This document shows, piece after piece, positions 3,044 through 9,488 of a stretch of 64,000 nucleotides of DNA. Both the position numbers and the translations under genes were made by a program. This stretch comes from Escherichia coli (lineage in GTDB: Bacteria; Pseudomonadota; Gammaproteobacteria; Enterobacterales; Enterobacteriaceae), in the NCBI RefSeq assembly GCF_003790525.1, contig NZ_CP033635.1, one strand, 5' to 3'. Below the pieces are notes generated by a model. That model saw nothing but the letters and a program-made list of their open reading frames with translations. It had not been told where the DNA came from and ran no database searches. Every line of letters starts with the position of its first letter. The first letter of the stretch is position 1.

Positions 3044-3928
3044 TCAGAACAGGTGATCCCACAGTGTGACCAGCAGGTGGATAATGCGGGCCCGGGCTTT
3101 ACGCAGAAGCTGTAACATCCAGGCCGGAAAACTGAACCGGGCAGCGGCGTCGTCAAAACTTTTCCCGATGGCGTCACCAAAAGTCTGTTGTGCGTGTTTC
3201 TGGGCCTGTTCAGAGCGGTTTTCTCCCCGGATATGTGAATAAACCGCGCTGGTTGCCTGTGGTGGCAGTGCGTGGATCATCAGTGACACCAGTGCCTGAA
3301 GATTCCAGCCGACAGGCGCTGCAACGGAGAGTACCGGAAATGATGACGGGAACAGGGTGGCCACCCGGGCTGTTACTGTCGCCAGTGAGAGTTCCTGCTG
3401 ACGGGACGGGCATTTTTCTGTGTCGTTCCATTCTTCAGCAGGAAACACGCGATCGGCATGGCTGAGAACAAACAGAAAACGCGAGGGATCGGCATCTTCA
3501 TTCAGTAAAAACTGATGCATGGCGATGTCGGCAGCATACGCACGTTCATCAGCCCGCAGGATCCAGATAATCAGATCCAGTTCCGGTAGCAACTGATGAT
3601 AAAGTGCCCGGTATTCCTGATCATGCTGCGGTGTCTCACCAATGCCGGGCAGATCGACCAGCGTCATTCTGCGTTCACCGATCTGCAGGGTGAGGTGATG
3701 AGCCTGGCGGGTGCAGCCGTTCAGGGGATGCGTGGCGCAGATATGGGACTGAAAAATGGCATTACACAGGCTGCTTTTGCCTGTGCCGGATTTACCCATA
3801 ATGCCAATCACGGGCTCGTAATGAATAACACCGTGGAGATGTTCAAGGATTTTCTGGCGAATTTCTTCAGGAAGAAACGTCAGATATGATTTCACTTGTG
3901 CAGAGAGGGAAGAATGGCTGAATGACAT
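3044..3928 (-). CDS. YfjP/YeeP/YkfA-type small GTPase
   Basis: P-loop GKSGTGKSS, a DLPG (G3) motif, and the conserved first-gene position in the CP4-type tail module. Confidence 0.85.
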   Translation of the reverse strand: MSFSHSSLSAQVKSYLTFLPEEIRQKILEHLHGVIHYEPVIGIMGKSGTGKSSLCNAIFQSHICATHPLNGCTRQAHHLTLQIGERRMTLVDLPGIGETPQHDQEYRALYHQLLPELDLIIWILRADERAYAADIAMHQFLLNEDADPSRFLFVLSHADRVFPAEEWNDTEKCPSRQQELSLATVTARVATLFPSSFPVLSVAAPVGWNLQALVSLMIHALPPQATSAVYSHIRGENRSEQAQKHAQQTFGDAIGKSFDDAAARFSFPAWMLQLLRKARARIIHLLVTLWDHLF

Positions 3929-4034
3929 ACCGGTATCCTGTTGATTTCGCTGAACCGGATCACACTAATCCGGTTTATCATTCAGGTAATATGGACGTGA
4001 AAAAATCTGGAGTGACAAAGTGTGGAGGGAAGAG

Positions 4035-5009
4035 ATGACGGCACAACAAAGTGATGCGCTGCGTGAGATTGCTAATAAAGCCAGAGTTACCACCATTCTT
4101 CAGAGTAAGGCCTGGAAAGATACCCAGCGAATACTGAAGCGCAGCGGACTTGTGTGCAGAGAACGATCAGAGCCGTTTGATCCGGAGAAACATTTTGACT
4201 GTTATACGGTGCGTTATCTGTACCTGCTTAACATAATAGCACTTGAGCTAAGGCCAGATACAAGGCCAGATACACGGATTAAGGTTGAGGTGGGCCACTG
4301 GTATCGTATGACGGGTAAACGTTTATCACTTAATGTCCCGCCTTTTATGCTGATTCCGCGTAATATCCGGAGAAAAGTGGATGGATTCAGGCAATCAGAA
4401 GGTAAAACAACAAAAAAACCGACTCAACCGTTCACGGGCAGTTTGTATGAGGTTTTGAGCGGGGATATTGATTCGGCTAAGCTGGACGCATGGATTGCTG
4501 GACTACCTCTGAGTGCGCTGGAGGGAGCGAAGGAAATCCCAATCATGGGATTTAGTCCATGGGTTGTAGCCAAATCTGTTCGTCAGTCTGCATCCCCGAC
4601 GTTTGAACTTTTTTATCAGGAGTATCAGTCCCTGGTATTAAAATCTGTTTTTAAACTGGAACCGGGATTTGAACAACTTTTAACAAGACTAAGCTTTATA
4701 AAACAATCAATCCTCAGCAAACAACAATACAGGGTTAAATCGCAGTTACTGGAGAGACTGGGGAATGTGTTGTTTTTCACGTTGCTTTATAACCAGGGAT
4801 GTCCGGGAGAGTTTATAAATACACTTGTGGAAAAGGAGGACATTTATCTGAAAGCGTCCCCCGGGGAAGAAAAGGTGAAAGCACACCAGAAGCTGATTAA
4901 CTACATTGAAGAGTTCTGCAACGAAATGACGGAAAAGTACCTGATGCCTGCAGCCGGGAGACACTACAAAAAGAGGAAAACTGCCAGGAGTGGAAGTAGT
5001 GAAAGTTAA
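4035..5009 (+). CDS. hypothetical protein (324 aa from ATG 4035), no recognisable domain
   Basis: Long uninterrupted ORF (track 4020..5009). ATG 4035 follows GGAGGG at 4024-4029. Divergent from the GTPase operon. Contains a 12-bp tandem repeat (aaggccagatac x2) encoding RPDTRPDT. Confidence 0.6.
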   Translation: MTAQQSDALREIANKARVTTILQSKAWKDTQRILKRSGLVCRERSEPFDPEKHFDCYTVRYLYLLNIIALELRPDTRPDTRIKVEVGHWYRMTGKRLSLNVPPFMLIPRNIRRKVDGFRQSEGKTTKKPTQPFTGSLYEVLSGDIDSAKLDAWIAGLPLSALEGAKEIPIMGFSPWVVAKSVRQSASPTFELFYQEYQSLVLKSVFKLEPGFEQLLTRLSFIKQSILSKQQYRVKSQLLERLGNVLFFTLLYNQGCPGEFINTLVEKEDIYLKASPGEEKVKAHQKLINYIEEFCNEMTEKYLMPAAGRHYKKRKTARSGSSES

Positions 5010-5797
5010 TCCAGTCTACCGTTCAGAATCAGTTGTTCCAGAATAGCCTGCTGTGTTGTTTTCCTCGCTCTGGTCAGTCTGTCCAGAGCGCTTTTTGCGG
5101 ACGGTGATATCTTTACGTTAATTTGTACCCGTTTATCTTTTTTCCCGTCGATAAACTGTTTTCTGAAAGCGTCGTGCATTCTTCTGTAAAAATGTTCTTC
5201 AGCGCAGATCCCGACATGAAACTCTTTGTCGTTGTACTGGCATGGTATATCTCCGGGATACAGTATTTTAAGCAATGCTAAGATGGCAATGCGTTTCTCT
5301 TCGTTATTGACGGGGCAAAACCAGGTTAAATGTGACTCGGGAATACGAATGTTAATATATTTCCATGCCCACTCGAGTTGTTCCGGATTTTTTTTAAGCC
5401 ATGTAGCCTGGTTTTTGTTCCCGATTTCCTTCCAGTTTTTATAGATGGCATCAACGAGATTTTTAGTAAAAGCTTCCGTTTCTATCTGTGCTACACTATC
5501 AATCCATCGCCTGATGATCTCCAGCCGAATCTCATGGGTTGAGGATGACAGCTTACTGATGCAAACAGATTCTTCAGAAGTGGGAAGTTGCATGGTAAGT
5601 TCATAGTAACTGCTCCCTGACACTTTCATATCCTTTATCACCAGACAAAACCAGAATGCTGCAACTTTATCCTTAAGCCATTCAGGTAAATGCCTATCCT
5701 GCACATGACGCGATTTTAACGAATTCAGATTTTCTCCATTTTTCGATAAAAATTGATTCTGTTTATCTCGCCCCTGATCGTTAATCCGTAATGTCAT
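5006..5797 (-). CDS. hypothetical protein (263 aa) with C-terminal ribbon-helix-helix-like tail
   Basis: Track ORF 5006..5845. ATG 5797 follows AAGGAG. The C-terminus VQINVKISPSAKSALDRLTRARKTTQQAILEQLIL has a beta-strand/helix/helix pattern like CopG/Arc RHH. Its stop overlaps the stop of 4035..5009 within TTAA. Confidence 0.6.
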   Translation of the reverse strand: MTLRINDQGRDKQNQFLSKNGENLNSLKSRHVQDRHLPEWLKDKVAAFWFCLVIKDMKVSGSSYYELTMQLPTSEESVCISKLSSSTHEIRLEIIRRWIDSVAQIETEAFTKNLVDAIYKNWKEIGNKNQATWLKKNPEQLEWAWKYINIRIPESHLTWFCPVNNEEKRIAILALLKILYPGDIPCQYNDKEFHVGICAEEHFYRRMHDAFRKQFIDGKKDKRVQINVKISPSAKSALDRLTRARKTTQQAILEQLILNGRLD

Positions 5798-6430
5798 CTG
5801 TTTTCTCCTTCTTTCCGGGTTATCTGTTATTAAACCCCATATCAATAAAACGAGTGCAATGCAATAAAATTTACAAATAAAAGCATTTTGTGTTCACAGA
5901 ACGATTATTCACCAGTTATTAATGCAATAAAATATTCCTGAACTATTCCTTGATTAGGAAAAACATGCTATCAACTATGGTTCATGTGCCCCTTGTGGAG
6001 GGCGTTTTGCCGTTCGGCTGTTCTTGTGGTCAGATTAACAATCTGAAGAGTAAAGACGACAGTAATCTGTCTGTTATAGTGGCGATAAAAACACTGAATG
6101 TGCATCCTGTATGTGAAATCCGGTCATGTGGAGCAGTAAGCAATGACAGACATGCATGTTATATGTGAAGGGGGCCGGGAGACGACATAATCAGTATGGC
6201 TGTCATTCTGGTTGTAAAACGCGATCACTTTCCGGGGGTAAAAGATGATATGGAGGCTGACAAACGGTTTGCTTCGGATTGTCTTTTCTGGGGCCTGAAA
6301 TACGGGGGCAGAAAAATAATTCCAGAGTAAATCTGCTCTGTTTTTAGGACAGAAAACTCCATGCTGGCTGTAAAAGTGAGAAATCAACACCCAGTATGTA
6401 TGGAAGTCTGAAGATGTTGAGAATGTCGGT

Positions 6431-6622
6431 ATGATACTATATACACATGTTTTTATTAAGTGTTATATACATATCTTTTTAAATAGATAATTCTACACAT
6501 ATTTTACTAAGTATTTTTACTAAGCATTTCAGTAAGTGTTATACACGTATTTTCTACTAAGTGTTTTACCAGACATACACGTGTTTTCATAAACAGCCCT
6601 ATAAGTGTTTTCATTAAGCATT
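6431..6622. repeat. iteron-like array: four ~22-35 bp units ATACAC(A/G)T..TTTT..A(C/T)TAAGT(G/A)TT plus extra TAAG(C/T)(A/G)TT half-sites
   Basis: Units read at 6431-6454, 6494-6516, 6541-6565 and 6575-6609. Half-sites at 6521-6528, 6533-6540 and 6615-6622. Confidence 0.6.
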
Positions 6623-7522
6623 GCTGTACACATTGCTTTGTCTGAAACTCATCCAGTTTAGTAAATCTTTACGTTAGCTAAAATCAGTTTAAAGCTGCTG
6701 TAAAACCTTTCTGTTTAAGCAATCAATCTGCTATTCGATTTTACTGATGTTGCGTTTAACCTTTTCTGAGATTTCGAGTTTCGACGTTAGCATGAGAAAA
6801 GTATCTTTACGCTAAATCAACCCGAACTTTCCTGAAGTAATCTGACGTTTTTTTCGATGTGCTTTCGACGATTCTGTTAAACGACTTTCTGGATGTTTTG
6901 ATAACAATCAGATTGAGGCATTAACGATTCCTGACGTTTTGCTTTTTCATGTAAGGTCATTGTTTTCGTCATGATGTGATTTTTCTTCTTGCATTGCGAA
7001 AGTGTGATGATTGGTTTTGGTTTTTTGATTCAGATGAGATTTACGTTATCGATGGTTAATCGTTTTTATGGTGCGTAGTGAAATGTAACATTTTCGGGAT
7101 GAGAAAATCGATTCTGATGGTGATGGGGATGATCGTGTTACGGCGTTATCTGTAAACAGGTTTTAAACGTGTCATTCGCATTCGTGATTGAGTAATGTGG
7201 TTAAGCTGTAGGTTTTGGTGTTGTTGTTGATTCACAGCGCCAGAAAGTGCTCTGATTGCGTTTCTGGTGTTTTGTTCGAATGTTCTGTGGATCCTTTTCC
7301 CTTCTGACTTTTCTCGTTGTCCATGTCGTTTTTAAATCCATTCGCTGTTCTTGAGTGTTTTTACCCTGCGTGTAGAATTATCTTTTCGTTCCGGGATGGT
7401 TTGTTCCGTTTCAATCACTCTTAATCAGAGAGTTGTAGCATTGCTCAATGCCGGATGCCGTAAAGTTTTACCGCAGTGATTAATGATGTGAAGTCAATCC
7501 AAATCAACGGAGATCTCTCATC

Positions 7523-8254
7523 ATGAATCAACCAATACACAATGCTTACTGGTTATCCCGTTTTGACAGCCTTCTCAACAGTGCCCTGGCGCAACACCGT
7601 GCCGTTTCGTTAATCCGGGTGGATTTACGTTTTCCTGAGTATATGCCTGCCACCATTATGGATACCGATTTAGATTCAGCGGTGATTTCTCGTTTTTTCG
7701 AATCCCTGAAAGCCAAAATCCAGGCTTACCAGCGGAAAAAACGACGTGCCAACAAGCGTGTGCGTGCAACCACCCTGCATTATTTCTGGTGTCGGGAGTT
7801 TGGCAAGGAAAAAGGCAGGAAACATTATCACGTGATATTACTGCTCAACAAAGATACCTGGTGCTCGCCAGGGGATTTCACCGTTCCTTCTTCGCTGGCG
7901 ACACTGATCAAGCTGGCATGGTGTAGTGCTCTGCATCTTGAGCCCTGGCAGGGTAATGGACTGGTTCATTTTTCCAGGCGGACGCCTTTCCGTAAACCGA
8001 CATCATCTGATGCTCGCCCTTCTTCCGATGATACGCCTTTGTCGGGTGGATGTTCTGATACCAGGAAGGCTTCAGACAAAAAGCCGGGTGAAGCCGCTGT
8101 TCTCTGGATCAAGCGTGGTGATGTGGAAGCGCTGCAGAAAGCCCGGAACAGAGCCAGTTATCTCGTGAAATATGAGACGAAGCAGCATGACGGTTCCGGG
8201 CAACGTAATTATGGTTGCAGTCGTGGGCCGGGGCGTCTGCTGGATGGCAGGTGA
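7523..8254 (+). CDS. YfjJ/YagK (inovirus Gp2-type) family protein, paralogue 1
   Basis: 243-aa ORF. The N-terminal VSLIRVDLRFPEY... and HYHVILLLN motifs are typical of this family. SD GGAGA lies 9 nt upstream. Confidence 0.75.
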   Translation: MNQPIHNAYWLSRFDSLLNSALAQHRAVSLIRVDLRFPEYMPATIMDTDLDSAVISRFFESLKAKIQAYQRKKRRANKRVRATTLHYFWCREFGKEKGRKHYHVILLLNKDTWCSPGDFTVPSSLATLIKLAWCSALHLEPWQGNGLVHFSRRTPFRKPTSSDARPSSDDTPLSGGCSDTRKASDKKPGEAAVLWIKRGDVEALQKARNRASYLVKYETKQHDGSGQRNYGCSRGPGRLLDGR

Positions 8255-8610
8255 GCCCTGTAAAACGACATCCGGTGCCTGAGCTTATGCTACAGGACGT
8301 TGGCTGACGCCCTTAGCTCGTTTTCTGAAAAAGTCGTCCTGAAGTCATGCAACGGTATTTTTCTCTGCTTTCGCTCCTGGAAACACTCCGTCGGTAAAAC
8401 CTTACTGTCCTGCTTAATGATGTGAACCGAAGTCAACGGAGAGCATTCATTCTGAACCTGCATCCGGTGTTCTGTCCCTTGTCGGTTACCTGATCTTCCC
8501 GTTCTGCCGCGGTTTTTCACTTATTCCATCAACCCCATACGCAAGCCATAACACGTCAGCGCATCCACGGGCAGGACGCGTTGTGGGCTGCGTATAACGG
8601 AACATATCTT

Positions 8611-9183
8611 ATGAATGCTATCCCTTATTTCGACTATAGCCTTGCCCCCTTCTGGCCATCTTATCAGAACAAAATCATCGGCGTTCTCAACCGTGTGTTG
8701 CGCGAGCAGTCCTGCTCCCGAATACGGCGGATCCTGCTTCGTCTGCCGGGGGAACATGGCAACATCTTCAGCGACAGAAAAACCTGGTTCGGTATGGCCT
8801 TTATCGAAACCGTCAGTGCGCTGATGAATGCAACCCCCGGACGCGACCTCTGCTGGCTCCTGACACGTCATCCTGAAAAACCGGAATACCACGTGGTGCT
8901 GTGCGTCAGACAGGAATATTTCGACGGCCCTGAGCTGGACCGGTTGATTCTGGATGCCTGGAGCAACGTACTGGGCTTCGCGTCACCGGGTGAAGCAGCA
9001 CCGTACCAGAAACAGATAACCCGGGATGTGGTGCTGGACAGTTGTTCACCGGACTGCGAAGAGAGACTCAAAGAGCTGATATGGGCGTTCAGTGATTTCG
9101 CCCGCGATCGTCGTGGTGTGCGCGATCCGGAAGCCCGTTACCTCGCCGGTAATCCCTGGTATCCCGTAGCAGGCCAGCTCTGA
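8611..9183 (+). CDS. YfjJ/YagK family protein, paralogue 2
   Basis: Track ORF 8581..9183; ATG 8611 gives MNAIPYFDY... Contains RRILLRLPGEHG and YHVVLCV, the same block order as paralogue 1. Confidence 0.68.
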   Translation: MNAIPYFDYSLAPFWPSYQNKIIGVLNRVLREQSCSRIRRILLRLPGEHGNIFSDRKTWFGMAFIETVSALMNATPGRDLCWLLTRHPEKPEYHVVLCVRQEYFDGPELDRLILDAWSNVLGFASPGEAAPYQKQITRDVVLDSCSPDCEERLKELIWAFSDFARDRRGVRDPEARYLAGNPWYPVAGQL

Positions 9184-9251
9184 AAGCTCAGCTCAGCAGA
9201 TTCACCCGCATTTGCCCAACATTCATAAATCTCACAGAGGACATTCTGACC

Positions 9252-9488
9252 ATGTTGACCTCAATGACAGGTCACGACAGCGTATTGCTGCGTGCCGACG
9301 ATCCCCTGATCGACATGAACTACATCACCAGCTTCACTGGTATGACCGACAAATGGTTTTACAAGCTGATCAGTGAAGGCCATTTCCCTAAACCCATCAA
9401 ACTGGGGCGCAGCAGCCGCTGGTACAAAAGTGAAGTGGAGCAGTGGATGCAGCAACGAATCGAGGCATCACGAGGGGCAGCAGCATGA
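9252..9488 (+). CDS. AlpA-family phage/island transcriptional regulator
   Basis: 78 aa. GMTDKWFYKLISEGHFPKPIKLGRSSRWYKSEVEQW is the classic AlpA/MerR-like HTH signature. Confidence 0.85.
   Translation: MLTSMTGHDSVLLRADDPLIDMNYITSFTGMTDKWFYKLISEGHFPKPIKLGRSSRWYKSEVEQWMQQRIEASRGAAA

Follow-up and report, generated by a model that had tools for sequence, protein, structure and literature searches.

The convergent genes that we call OrfA and OrfB belong to the invariant backbone of a family of mobile islands and are not part of the island cargo. OrfA-like DNA occurs in 742 of 5426 complete E. coli genomes (about 14%), mostly over two genes that are annotated as hypothetical. It is new that these two genes form an invariant core pair, and that OrfB, a fast-diversifying protein with a very probable ribbon-helix-helix (RHH) domain that appears to be exchanged together with its upstream DNA, is a candidate regulatory or immunity switch of the islands. 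Our preferred reading, held with moderate confidence, is that the pair represents a backbone module of satellite-like islands, in which OrfB would act as an allele-specific, immunity-like RHH repressor and OrfA as its obligate partner. The analyzed stretch of E. coli DNA (64,000 nucleotides) is referred to as the window, and its relevant features are:

3044..3928, minus strand: YfjP/YkfA/YeeP-type GTPase (RefSeq 'GTPase family protein')
3929..4034, no strand: presumed divergent control region of the GTPase gene and OrfA, 106 bp
4035-5009, plus strand: OrfA, 324 aa (open reading frame 4020..5009, first ATG at 4035)
5006-5797, minus strand: OrfB, 263 aa (open reading frame 5006..5845, ATG at 5797)
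5021..5134, minus strand: probable RHH domain of OrfB, residues ~222-259 (CopG / CopB-RepA2-like, DNA-binding by similarity)
5798..6030, no strand: allele-specific OrfB upstream region, presumed promoter and operator (identity drops relative to other islands)
5858-5870 and 5921-5933, plus strand: exact direct repeat AATGCAATAAAAT, two copies 63 bp apart in the OrfB upstream region
5932..5948, plus strand: candidate OrfB operator ATATTC-N5-CTATTC, two half-sites at 11-bp phase
6031..7522, no strand: AT-rich noncoding region from the OrfB cassette to YagK/YfjJ, conserved across alleles
7523..8254, plus strand: YagK/YfjJ, inovirus Gp2-type HUH Rep-like protein (PF11726/PF23343), with AlpA-type genes next

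Both OrfA and OrfB are real genes and not chance open reading frames, because they are annotated in RefSeq (WP_032354114.1 and WP_000175256.1, labeled 'hypothetical' everywhere), are conserved over their full length in other genera down to about 16-31% identity, and show pairwise dN/dS values of 0.2-0.8, which are below 1 in every comparison (OrfB: 0.2-0.5). A strong Shine-Dalgarno sequence precedes each start codon (GGAGGGAAGAG ahead of ATG 4035 for OrfA, AAGGAG ahead of ATG 5797 for OrfB), and the exact proteins are present on 411 and at least 1000 contigs. The stop codons overlap by 4 nt, with the TAA of OrfA at 5007-5009 and that of OrfB being the complement of 5006-5008, so that TTAA at 5006-5009 is common to both genes. 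The pair has a GC content of 0.41-0.46, compared to 0.50-0.57 for the GTPase module and 0.34-0.40 for the noncoding DNA on the right-hand side. The original prediction had described two long, convergent, uncharacterized open reading frames (324 aa on the plus strand, 263 aa on the minus strand) which share a TTAA and are more AT-rich than the conserved flank, and this description is confirmed. The low GC content, the exclusively hypothetical annotation, and the abundance of IS elements and pseudogenes in the surrounding island would fit decaying, non-functional remnants or mis-called open reading frames in H-NS-silenced AT-rich island DNA. However, sequence motifs are kept and the proteins remain full-length from E. 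coli to Serratia and Citrobacter, and these conservation data, together with the dN/dS values, the Shine-Dalgarno sequences, and the contig counts, leave such a reading effectively refuted, with a negligible probability. The two proteins are not paralogs of each other, which was ruled out by hhalign (probability 0.2%).

The 4-nt stop overlap is retained in all E. coli loci examined, and no terminator-like site was found between or inside the two genes. In distant loci, the convergent genes are instead separated by gaps of 15-121 bp. As the E. coli pair has neither intergenic space nor a terminator, each transcript must read antisense into the other, and such read-through would couple the expression of OrfA and OrfB negatively. 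Distant loci lack the stop overlap, so that the module cannot depend on antisense coupling.

The gene order GTPase(-)/OrfA(+)/OrfB(-)/YagK-YfjJ(+)/AlpA is intact in the related E. coli loci L002, L003, L005-L015, and L027. The same order is found in Citrobacter (L018, with 31% identity for OrfA and E=2e-44 for an OrfB-like protein compared to the OrfB profile), in Serratia (L017 and L029, with 26% identity for OrfA and E=1e-23 for an OrfB-like protein), and in the distant loci L020 and L021. This covers every locus that is long enough to show flanks, with OrfA down to about 25% identity. The overlapping pair is also retained on two short contigs (L004, L026) and on a plasmid-borne island fragment (L025), and the convergent pair is present on the short contigs L022 and L023. 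The invariant left neighbor, divergent from OrfA, is the GTPase gene, which opens a leftward 'moron' operon that continues with a 225-aa protein, DUF932, an antirestriction protein, RadC, and onward; MMR_HSR1 Pfam matches were obtained in each related locus that extends far enough to reach this gene. The invariant right neighbor, divergent from OrfB, is YagK/YfjJ. A scan of the genome-contig collection returned two loci, one in a Serratia MAG and one in a likely contaminated MAG, a low number which is due to the collection having one genome per species. In the plasmid collection, one plasmid with a captured island fragment was identified, and the phage collection gave no match.

Cargo that differs by locus (TonB receptor, TIR protein, DUF3987, dynamin-like protein) is located to the right of YagK/YfjJ. 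The pair had originally been placed in a variable cargo slot, and this view has to be abandoned given that the order is fixed in all loci with visible flanks. Strain K-12 had also been described as carrying defense genes at the equivalent position of CP4-57, which is correct: between yfjJ and yfjP, the order is abpB(yfjK)-abpA(yfjL)-yfjM-rnlA-rnlB. When all six-frame open reading frames of K-12 CP4-57 were searched with both profiles (hmmsearch), no homolog of OrfA or OrfB was obtained; the same search rejected YfjH, a K-12 protein of 318 aa encoded divergently from alpA, as a homolog. K-12 CP4-57 is a different lineage with other genes in this interval, and the pair is thus conserved in the family analyzed here but not in all CP4-type islands. 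As the interval is not a defense-cargo slot in this lineage, screens for defense systems should turn to the right of YagK/YfjJ.

Few large mobile elements are as common in E. coli, Shigella, and related bacteria as islands of this type, which combine a P4-like integrase, AlpA, a Gp2-type Rep, and a GTPase/DUF932/ArdB/RadC/CbtA operon. They carry defense systems as well as genes for ferric citrate uptake, adhesins, and resistance. The element family has independently been described as uncharacterized and putatively satellite-like, its members combining an integrase and an excisionase with a HUH Rep, a RadC/ArdB/CbtA module, and cargo that includes ferric citrate operons (bioRxiv 10.1101/2025.09.15.676423).

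OrfA (pI 9.6) is predicted to be all-helical and soluble. Its conserved motifs are SKAW..TQ..LKRSG, IVP..IRRK(A/V)D(A/G)F.Q, GSLY, and LG.ALFF.LLY, and it has a basic C-terminal tail. OrfA and 20 relatives gave no match to Pfam, NCBIfam, PHROG, PADLOC, or the PDB, profiles included, and no meaningful match was obtained when profiles A2, A3, A4, and A5 were compared to PDB sequences. Judged by these sequence comparisons, OrfA founds a small new protein family, and OrfA and OrfB each define a family that is absent from Pfam. The AlphaFold models (pLDDT 44.2 for OrfA, 57.6 for OrfB) are too poor to indicate a fold for OrfA or for the N-terminal domain of OrfB, and fold searches returned nothing informative. 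The C-terminal third of OrfA co-varies with the OrfB allele, which physical linkage alone can explain.

The original prediction had envisaged a new toxin-antitoxin, abortive-infection, or anti-phage pair. OrfA would then be an effector or toxin, and OrfB an autoregulating RHH antitoxin with a HicB-like layout, having its neutralizing domain at the N-terminus and the RHH domain at the C-terminus. RHH domains are common in antitoxins, and OrfA and OrfB are strictly co-inherited across large evolutionary distances. The fast divergence of OrfB and the mosaic nature of OrfA, whose dN/dS is rather high (0.4-0.8), resemble what is seen in conflict systems, and the islands do carry defense cargo, with AbpAB and RnlAB at the equivalent position in K-12. 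Nevertheless, OrfA and OrfB are convergent and not co-transcribed, they do not form the co-directional operon of type II systems, their position in the backbone is fixed while cargo varies elsewhere, and the island already has CbeA/CbtA. No nuclease, NTase, pore, toxin, or other effector domain is recognizable in the pair, neither protein has a predicted membrane segment, and there is no recognizable toxin family at the sequence level; OrfA lacks a Pfam or PDB match even when profiles are used. A search of PADLOC-DB v2 with 21 OrfA and 14 OrfB relatives returned a single stray match (JetB, from an OrfB relative, E=0.0037). We thus consider a toxin-antitoxin or defense role less likely than had been assumed, and an effector-antitoxin pair of this kind to be improbable.

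OrfB, like OrfA, is basic (pI 9.3) and predicted to be soluble. Its N-terminal ~215 aa form a helical, Trp-rich domain, which is followed by the probable C-terminal RHH domain. The residues W40, W49, W122, and W133 are invariant in the OrfB family, and no known relatives of the N-terminal domain were found. A match of this domain to phrog_2562 ('replication initiation protein', E=0.015) is judged to be a chance match because it is seen for only one of 14 OrfB relatives.

The C-terminus of OrfB is very probably an RHH domain, as suggested by several profile matches which are all below threshold. Its elements would be the strand VQINVKIS and the helices SAKSALDRLTR and TQQAILEQLIL, and the C-terminal sequence VQINVKISPSAKSALDRLTRARKTTQQAILEQLIL is confirmed. 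Scans of OrfA and OrfB against Pfam, NCBIfam, PHROGs, and PADLOC gave nothing above threshold. OrfB itself scores 13.7 bits with RHH_1 (PF01402; cut-off 20.5, E=0.065) and 13.4 bits with NF010256 (RepA2/CopB; cut-off 87, E=0.057). Among 14 OrfB relatives, 11 are matched by NF010256 (best E=7e-5), six by the IncL/M RepC model, and four each by RHH_1, PF10723, and an Arc-like PHROG. PF10723 (RepB-RCR_reg) is precomputed for five OrfB clusters, including the 281-aa allele group, and some OrfB alleles are labeled 'replication regulatory RepB family protein' by PGAP. The top PDB match of the OrfB C-terminal profile is CopG (E=0.1 among 177,635 PDB sequences), with the alignment extending from the CopG strand into its second helix. 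The AF2 monomer shows helices at 232-245 and 249-258 (pLDDT 73-79) and no strand at 224-230. The RHH-like tail that had been noticed from the sequence alone thus stands as a strand-helix-helix pattern of about 45 aa, consistently recognized on the same OrfB segment across the family and with CopG as the best PDB match, but it does not reach a curated cut-off in any profile match of OrfB.

Between islands of this family, the OrfB allele varies while the gene content of the interval is constant. A hypervariable cassette is formed by the N-terminal two thirds of OrfB and 150-230 bp of upstream DNA. When compared to L009 and L013, the window shows 41-66% identity over about 5144-5944 versus 90-99% in the GTPase gene, most of OrfA, 6044-7500, and YagK. 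The divergent block relative to L005 covers 4644-6044. At the protein level, the identity between the window and L009 is 88% for OrfA and 49% for OrfB. OrfB thus shows the arrangement of an immunity cassette: a presumed repressor gene which is hypervariable together with its intergenic DNA, is enclosed by conserved flanks, and is divergent from a Rep gene.

The allele-specific upstream DNA contains candidate operator sites. ATATTC-N5-CTATTC has a single match in the 64-kb window, which is not significant on its own since at least one match was also obtained in 41 of 100 shuffled sequences. In all other loci with a QINVKIS-type RHH, the same motif is present at the same place in two, three, or four copies with exact 11-bp spacing, and CTATTC-N5-CTATTC is confined in QINVKIS-type loci to the DNA upstream of OrfB. 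It is absent from distant loci and from loci with a QISALIS-type RHH, the latter being a sample of three loci with near-identical upstream DNA, which does not amount to an independent second operator comparison. The presence of phased CTATTC repeats is thus correlated with the OrfB RHH type, and we treat them as candidate sites. The array is located at the edge of the block that can be aligned between alleles, and it could reflect common descent combined with slippage of 11-bp units rather than selection for binding.

Other noncoding DNA of the interval is conserved. In the control region between the GTPase gene and OrfA, GGTAATAT at 3985-3992 is unchanged across the loci of E. coli, Citrobacter, and Serratia and in L020. 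A dyad in this region (AACCGGAT at 3953-3960 and ATCCGGTT at 3968-3975) is conserved in position across loci with altered arms (CCTGGC/GCCAGG, CCGGA/TCCGG). On the other side of the pair, the noncoding region 6031..7522 may be a target of regulation or an origin, and has an iteron-like array at 6457-6628. For the conserved GC-rich patch at 6130-6345, RNAalifold did not indicate a structured RNA (covariation term +0.48, one compensatory pair), and the region has no match in Rfam. A small open reading frame of 44 codons, found by eye in this patch, is disrupted in L009 by an indel of 2 nt.

These data also bear on the possibility that the pair is a replication-control module for the HUH YagK/YfjJ replicon. 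A CopB/RepA2- or CopG-like OrfB would then set Rep expression and thereby the copy number after excision, and OrfA would assist in replication or segregation by acting on the iteron-bearing noncoding region. By sequence, the OrfB C-terminus is closest to repressors of plasmid replication (NF010256, IncL/M RepC, PF10723, CopG), some alleles have the PGAP label given above, and CopB and CopG act as transcriptional repressors of rep genes (PMC5717011). Moreover, OrfB is divergent from the Gp2-type Rep gene over a conserved noncoding region of 1.5 kb with its iteron-like array. However, CopB and CopG have only about 45-86 aa and are co-transcribed upstream of rep, whereas OrfB has 263 aa and is divergent at a distance of 1.7 kb; no more than the generic RHH fold is shared, at scores below threshold; and these islands are not known to replicate. 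The iteron-like array is constant across OrfB RHH types, which makes it an unlikely site for OrfB. We regard replication control as possible but rather unlikely; as a Rep-side repressor is assumed in both cases, it overlaps with our preferred reading and differs mainly in the claimed physiological role.

According to the preferred reading, that of a backbone module with an immunity-like repressor, the layout of the island family would be integrase, AlpA, HUH/Gp2-type Rep, and cargo, then the GTPase-DUF932-ArdB-RadC-CbeA/CbtA operon. OrfB would be a DNA-binding regulator whose CopG/CopB-like RHH domain dimerizes and recognizes short repeats lying on the same face of the DNA. For the allele in the window, the 11-bp-phased (A/T)TATTC / CTATTC elements are the candidate sites; they are located some 135-150 bp upstream of the OrfB start, in DNA that faces the side of the YagK/YfjJ Rep and AlpA. 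The Trp-rich helical N-terminal domain may serve oligomerization and/or signal sensing. OrfB and its upstream DNA appear to be exchanged and diversified as one cassette within otherwise near-identical islands, and such exchange would be the hallmark of a repressor of the immunity type and its cognate operator (like rstR/ig-2 and the lambdoid immunity regions). OrfA is the putative obligate partner, as it is never missing, converges with OrfB in every case, and is invariably divergent from the GTPase operon. We infer that it is most likely either a co-regulator or antagonist of OrfB, or a regulator of the GTPase-side operon.

A farther-reaching version, which we consider quite unlikely, is that OrfA and OrfB are the master switch of a widespread family of satellite-like islands, with a Stl- or RstR-like OrfB whose hypervariable Trp-rich N-terminal domain senses specific signals from a helper phage or the host, and with OrfA as dedicated antirepressor or co-sensor. 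If true, OrfB allele diversity would set the pairing of inducers and islands and would confer heteroimmunity between islands, and the missing regulatory logic of CP4/SRL-type islands that carry defense, iron-uptake, and resistance cargo would have been identified.

Several known systems invite comparison. With type II toxin-antitoxin systems that have RHH antitoxins (HicAB with a C-terminal RHH in HicB, ParDE, CcdAB), the pair shares that it is a co-inherited two-gene unit with one RHH partner on a mobile element, but it differs by its convergent genes, the lack of a toxin fold or motif, much larger proteins, and its fixed backbone position. CopG from pMV158 and CopB/RepA2 from R1 (IncFII) are the closest matches, below threshold, to the strand-helix-helix pattern in the last ~45 residues of OrfB; OrfB is also encoded beside a Rep gene and, by analogy, would be expected to occupy repeated sites in dimeric or tetrameric form. 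These repressors are, however, stand-alone proteins, while OrfB has in addition the novel Trp-rich domain and a convergent partner gene. In the Shigella SRL pathogenicity island, orf42-orf45 are located between the AlpA-type orf41 and the YfjP/YeeP GTPase orf46; they were reported to have 'no similarity' in 2001 and were still hypothetical in 2020 (PMC6980539, Table 2). From position and annotation, these are probably the same genes as OrfA and OrfB.

The rstR - ig-2 - rstA module of CTXphi and RS1 (and likewise the lambdoid immunity regions and SaPI Stl) provides a functional analogy only. OrfB, a probable RHH protein with a large additional domain, has no sequence relationship to RstR, which is a small helix-turn-helix protein, and the CTXphi module has no equivalent of OrfA. 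In both cases, however, the presumed or known repressor gene is divergent from a Rep gene of the filamentous-phage type (Gp2/RstA-like), and the repressor gene and the adjoining intergenic DNA differ strongly among elements that are nearly identical elsewhere, a divergence which in CTXphi is the basis of heteroimmunity (PMC7326730).

The window carries a convergent pair of genes, OrfA and OrfB, in the following setting.

3044–3928 (−), YfjP/YeeP-type GTPase gene, left neighbour of OrfA
4035–5009 (+), OrfA, 324 aa, ATG start preceded by GGAGG, in-frame GTG at 4020
5006–5797 (−), OrfB, 263 aa, ATG start preceded by AAGGAG
7523–8254 (+), YagK/YfjJ gene ("inovirus Gp2 family", HUH Rep-like), right neighbour beyond a noncoding stretch, with AlpA-type genes next

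The two reading frames had been described as facing each other with overlapping stops, and their coordinates, lengths and shared TTAA were all recovered: the plus-strand TAA occupies 5007–5009 and the minus-strand stop is the complement of 5006–5008. The region had also been thought more AT-rich than the flanking conserved module. The pair (GC 0.41–0.46) indeed lies below the GTPase module on its left (0.50–0.57), and the 1.7-kb noncoding stretch on its right is lower still (0.34–0.40). Both proteins are basic (pI 9.6 for OrfA and 9.3 for OrfB) and hydrophobic segments were found in neither. On an avian E. coli chromosome which is 100% identical to the window, they correspond to WP_032354114.1 and WP_000175256.1, both annotated as "hypothetical protein", and all public copies are named hypothetical or uncharacterised. 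Pairwise dN/dS values of 0.4–0.8 (OrfA) and 0.2–0.5 (OrfB) indicate purifying but relaxed selection. The conservation data exclude that the two are non-functional ORFs. That they might be paralogues was rejected upon comparison of the two.

A set of 5.8 billion proteins contained 67 close relatives of OrfA, and HMMER, run over all 1.84 billion cluster representatives, added about 18 full-length clusters at 22–32% identity. The motifs SKAW..TQ..LKRSG, IVP..IRRK(A/V)D(A/G)F.Q, GSLY, and LG.ALFF.LLY and a basic C-terminal tail are common to the clusters, and the protein is a mosaic whose variable patches are N-terminal, central, and within the C-terminal third. Neither the single sequence nor profiles gave a match in Pfam, NCBIfam, PHROGs, PADLOC or PDB sequences, and 20 aligned relatives likewise matched no family, PADLOC entry or PDB sequence. 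By these searches, OrfA represents a new protein family. Copies which are 81–88% identical to the E. coli protein occur on short contigs of Firmicutes MAGs (locus L028, "Oliverpabstia sp."; protein P0066, "Negativicoccus succinicivorans"); they almost certainly reflect bins contaminated with E. coli and not real host range.

For OrfB, a single-sequence search returned nine relatives, and more were recovered with a profile built to take in the divergent 281-aa allele. The convergent neighbours of distant OrfA homologues match this profile with E = 2e-44 and 1e-23 and, on these scores, are clearly OrfB homologues. The N-terminal ~215 residues are helical, with W40, W49, W122, and W133 invariant in the family alignment; judged from sequence, this region is an orphan without known relatives. 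The original prediction of a ribbon-helix-helix (RHH)-like tail is backed by matches that are sub-threshold but consistent across the family. At the C-terminus of the window protein, RHH_1 (E = 0.065) and NF010256 (RepA2/CopB, E = 0.057) match the same residues. Among 14 OrfB family members, C-terminal matches were obtained to NF010256 in 11 (best 7e-5), to IncL/M RepC in six, and to RHH_1, PF10723, and an Arc-like PHROG in four each. When all PDB sequences were searched with a profile of the final ~50 residues, CopG ranked first (E = 0.1), with an alignment running from the CopG strand into the second helix. The 281-aa allele group has a precomputed PF10723 assignment, and some of its members are named "replication regulatory RepB family protein" by PGAP. 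All RHH scores are below the curated family cut-offs, so that membership is likely and not proven; we consider the C-terminus to be very probably an RHH domain. AlphaFold2 models built on shallow alignments were poor (pLDDT 57.6 and 44.2), and fold searches gave generic helical matches only, to which no weight is given. As read here, OrfB combines a familiar type of DNA-binding module, the RHH domain, with a novel domain, its partner belongs to a novel family, and the pair corresponds to no known system.

The pair had been assigned to a variable cargo slot of a CP4-type island. The content described for K-12 CP4-57 is correct (abpB-abpA-yfjM-rnlA-rnlB between yfjJ and yfjP), and a homologue of neither OrfA nor OrfB was found there. 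The slot itself did not prove variable: in the retrieved islands, the interval between the GTPase and YagK/YfjJ genes has constant gene content, and OrfA and OrfB have the same flanks in every flank-showing locus from E. coli to Serratia. In all loci long enough, the order is GTPase (−), ~100 bp, OrfA (+), convergent OrfB (−), noncoding DNA, YagK/YfjJ, AlpA. The E. coli islands, whose OrfB alleles measure 243, 263, 269, 271, and 279–284 aa, keep this order and all have the 4-nt stop overlap; the overlapping pair is also present, adjoining Gp2-type and YfjI genes, in an island fragment captured by an IncI plasmid. The order is also kept in Citrobacter (L018, OrfA–OrfB gap 15 bp), Serratia (L017, identical to L029, gap 121 bp) and three metagenomic lineages (gaps 22–64 bp). 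Variable cargo sits to the right of YagK, where the content changes by island (TonB-dependent receptor, TIR protein, DUF3987, dynamin-like pair) and where the window has fec and class 1 integron remnants, then the ter and iol operons.

We consider it probable that the pair is a backbone regulator and not cargo. Its place is fixed, and the island family, though unstudied, is very common. OrfA-like DNA was found in 742 of 5426 complete E. coli genomes, and OrfB-like DNA was detectable in 560; a lower number is expected for OrfB, as the 281-aa allele group is only ~25% identical and invisible to blastn. The pair was found in none of 50,697 phage records and on one of 72,556 plasmids. A new toxin-antitoxin, abortive-infection or defence system, as originally suspected, would agree with the existence of RHH antitoxins, the tight co-inheritance of the genes and their fast evolution; it is unlikely given that the genes are convergent, their backbone position is fixed, PADLOC gave no hit, and no effector is recognisable. 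The equivalent position in the Shigella SRL island, with the AlpA gene on one side and the YfjP/YeeP GTPase on the other, belongs to orf42–45, which have carried the label "no similarity / hypothetical" since 2001 (PMC6980539). A 2025 preprint treats elements of this kind as uncharacterised and possibly satellite-like MGEs and lists integrase, excisionase, HUH Rep, a RadC/ArdB/CbtA module, and cargo, with ferric citrate operons among the latter; the section describing the elements does not mention the pair (10.1101/2025.09.15.676423).

Several observations concern the wider island. Two YagK/YfjJ paralogues are often present in related islands; at 8581–9488 of the window and in L001 (21377–23861), the first YagK is followed by another, shorter gene with the YagK/YfjJ domain, one for a hypothetical protein of 191 aa, and one for an AlpA-type HTH protein. 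In this strain, before the window begins (L001, 7769–8304), a frameshift affects the CbtA toxin gene of the island and the DUF5983 gene is truncated, with the YeeU-family antitoxin gene intact. The rest of the window (~14000–64000; L024, NZ_CM148631.1 1472293–1522000) is a composite island riddled with IS elements. It has fecI-fecR and, directly against remnants of intI1 and sul1, a truncated fecA; the ter (tellurite) cluster is complete and includes its ATP-grasp/PRTase/StiP genes; the iol (myo-inositol) operon, sitA, copies of IS1, IS2/IS3, IS66, and IS110, and many pseudogenes are also present.

The stretch of the window from the GTPase gene through YagK was compared with its counterparts in other E. 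coli islands. Relative to L009 and L013, the flanks (GTPase gene, most of OrfA, 6044–7500, YagK) show 90–99% identity, as against 41–66% at ~5144–5944, a block comprising the OrfB N-terminal two thirds together with 150–230 bp directly upstream. Protein identity to L009 is 88% for OrfA and 49% for OrfB. Relative to L005, an island with the 281-aa allele, the divergent block extends from 4644, in the last third of OrfA, to ~6044. In a multiple alignment of the noncoding DNA, the part adjoining OrfB is allele-specific and the 1.5 kb beyond is common to the alleles. By analogy, a repressor-like gene swapped together with its upstream DNA in near-identical elements is the pattern of an immunity region.

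The 243-, 263-, and 269/271-aa alleles have very different N-terminal domains and a near-identical RHH (strand QINVKIS). All QINVKIS-type alleles have (A/T)CTATTC repeats with exact 11-bp spacing, ~135–190 bp upstream of the start codon, represented in the window by:

5932–5948, candidate operator, ATATTC-N5-CTATTC, two copies

There are two copies in L003, three in L002, and four in L009–L015, and the bases between the CTATTC repeats vary. The two-site pattern has no other occurrence in these 9–17-kb loci or in the 64-kb window, and is absent from QISALIS-strand loci and from distant loci. The window match taken alone is not significant (at least one match in 41 of 100 shuffles). Among these loci, the repeats correlate with the RHH type; the three available QISALIS-type loci have nearly identical upstream DNA. 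Short direct repeats one helical turn apart would suit recognition by an RHH oligomer. An alternative is common descent with slippage, since the array sits where alignable DNA ends.

The conserved noncoding DNA between OrfB and YagK/YfjJ also contains an iteron-like array (6457–6628). TRF reports 5.2 copies of TTTTACTAAGTAT at 6502–6567, and related (C/T)TAAG(T/C)(A/G)TT copies extend from 6457 to 6621, on one strand throughout; among E. coli islands, the copy number is 2 to 7, independent of the OrfB allele. The array could be a Rep-binding origin or the site of another regulator. Dedicated replication control by the pair would agree with the adjoining Rep gene and array and for the similarity of OrfB to CopB and CopG, which are transcriptional repressors of rep genes (PMC5717011). 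CopB and CopG, however, are small and co-transcribed with rep, and the array does not follow the RHH type; we regard this reading as doubtful.

Within the same AT-rich DNA, a GC-rich patch (6130–6345) is >90% conserved; a plus-strand hairpin and T-run at its end (6323–6340) resemble a terminator. The patch has no Rfam match and no covariation support, and a 44-codon ORF read there by eye was discarded, its frame being broken in other loci. Inside the conserved noncoding DNA, RefSeq calls a putative 57-aa hypothetical protein (WP_001499034.1, ~7200–7373, minus strand); the small ORF is also called in L013/L014. In the 106-bp divergent region between the GTPase gene and OrfA, GGTAATAT (3985–3992) is invariant in E. 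coli, Citrobacter, Serratia, and one metagenomic lineage. The dyad AACCGGAT N7 ATCCGGTT precedes it (arms at 3953–3960 and 3968–3975); its arms change with symmetry kept (CCTGGC/GCCAGG; CCGGA/TCCGG), and two changes would give G-U pairs on the plus strand. Such a dyad might serve as an operator placed at −35 or form an RNA/DNA hairpin.

Returning to the backbone regulator, we propose that the RHH domain of OrfB binds the phased repeats and that OrfB represses its own promoter and/or the rightward unit facing YagK/YfjJ and AlpA; its variable N-terminal domain would set oligomerisation or answer a signal. OrfA, transcribed from the divergent GTPase/OrfA control region, would be an obligate partner acting as a modulator of OrfB or of the GTPase-side operon. 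In E. coli, the two genes adjoin without intergenic space, and a terminator-like site was found neither within nor between them, so their convergent transcripts must overlap. This would make their expression mutually antagonistic, resembling a bistable switch; because the stop overlap is not universal, such antisense antagonism would only be a lineage-specific refinement. The gene anatomy, the conservation, the divergent cassette and the link between repeats and RHH type are shown by the sequences, whereas DNA binding, repression and the part played by OrfA are inferred. For this explanation as a whole, we see roughly even chances. That OrfB acts as an immunity-like repressor of the Rep/AlpA side is a tentative reading. 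A Stl/RstR-like master switch of the islands, with the variable domain of OrfB sensing helper phages, is quite improbable and would be of high interest if true. The closest organisational parallel, by analogy and not homology, is rstR/ig-2 of CTXphi adjoining the Gp2-type rstA; in CTXphi, heteroimmunity rests on rstR diversity (PMC7326730).
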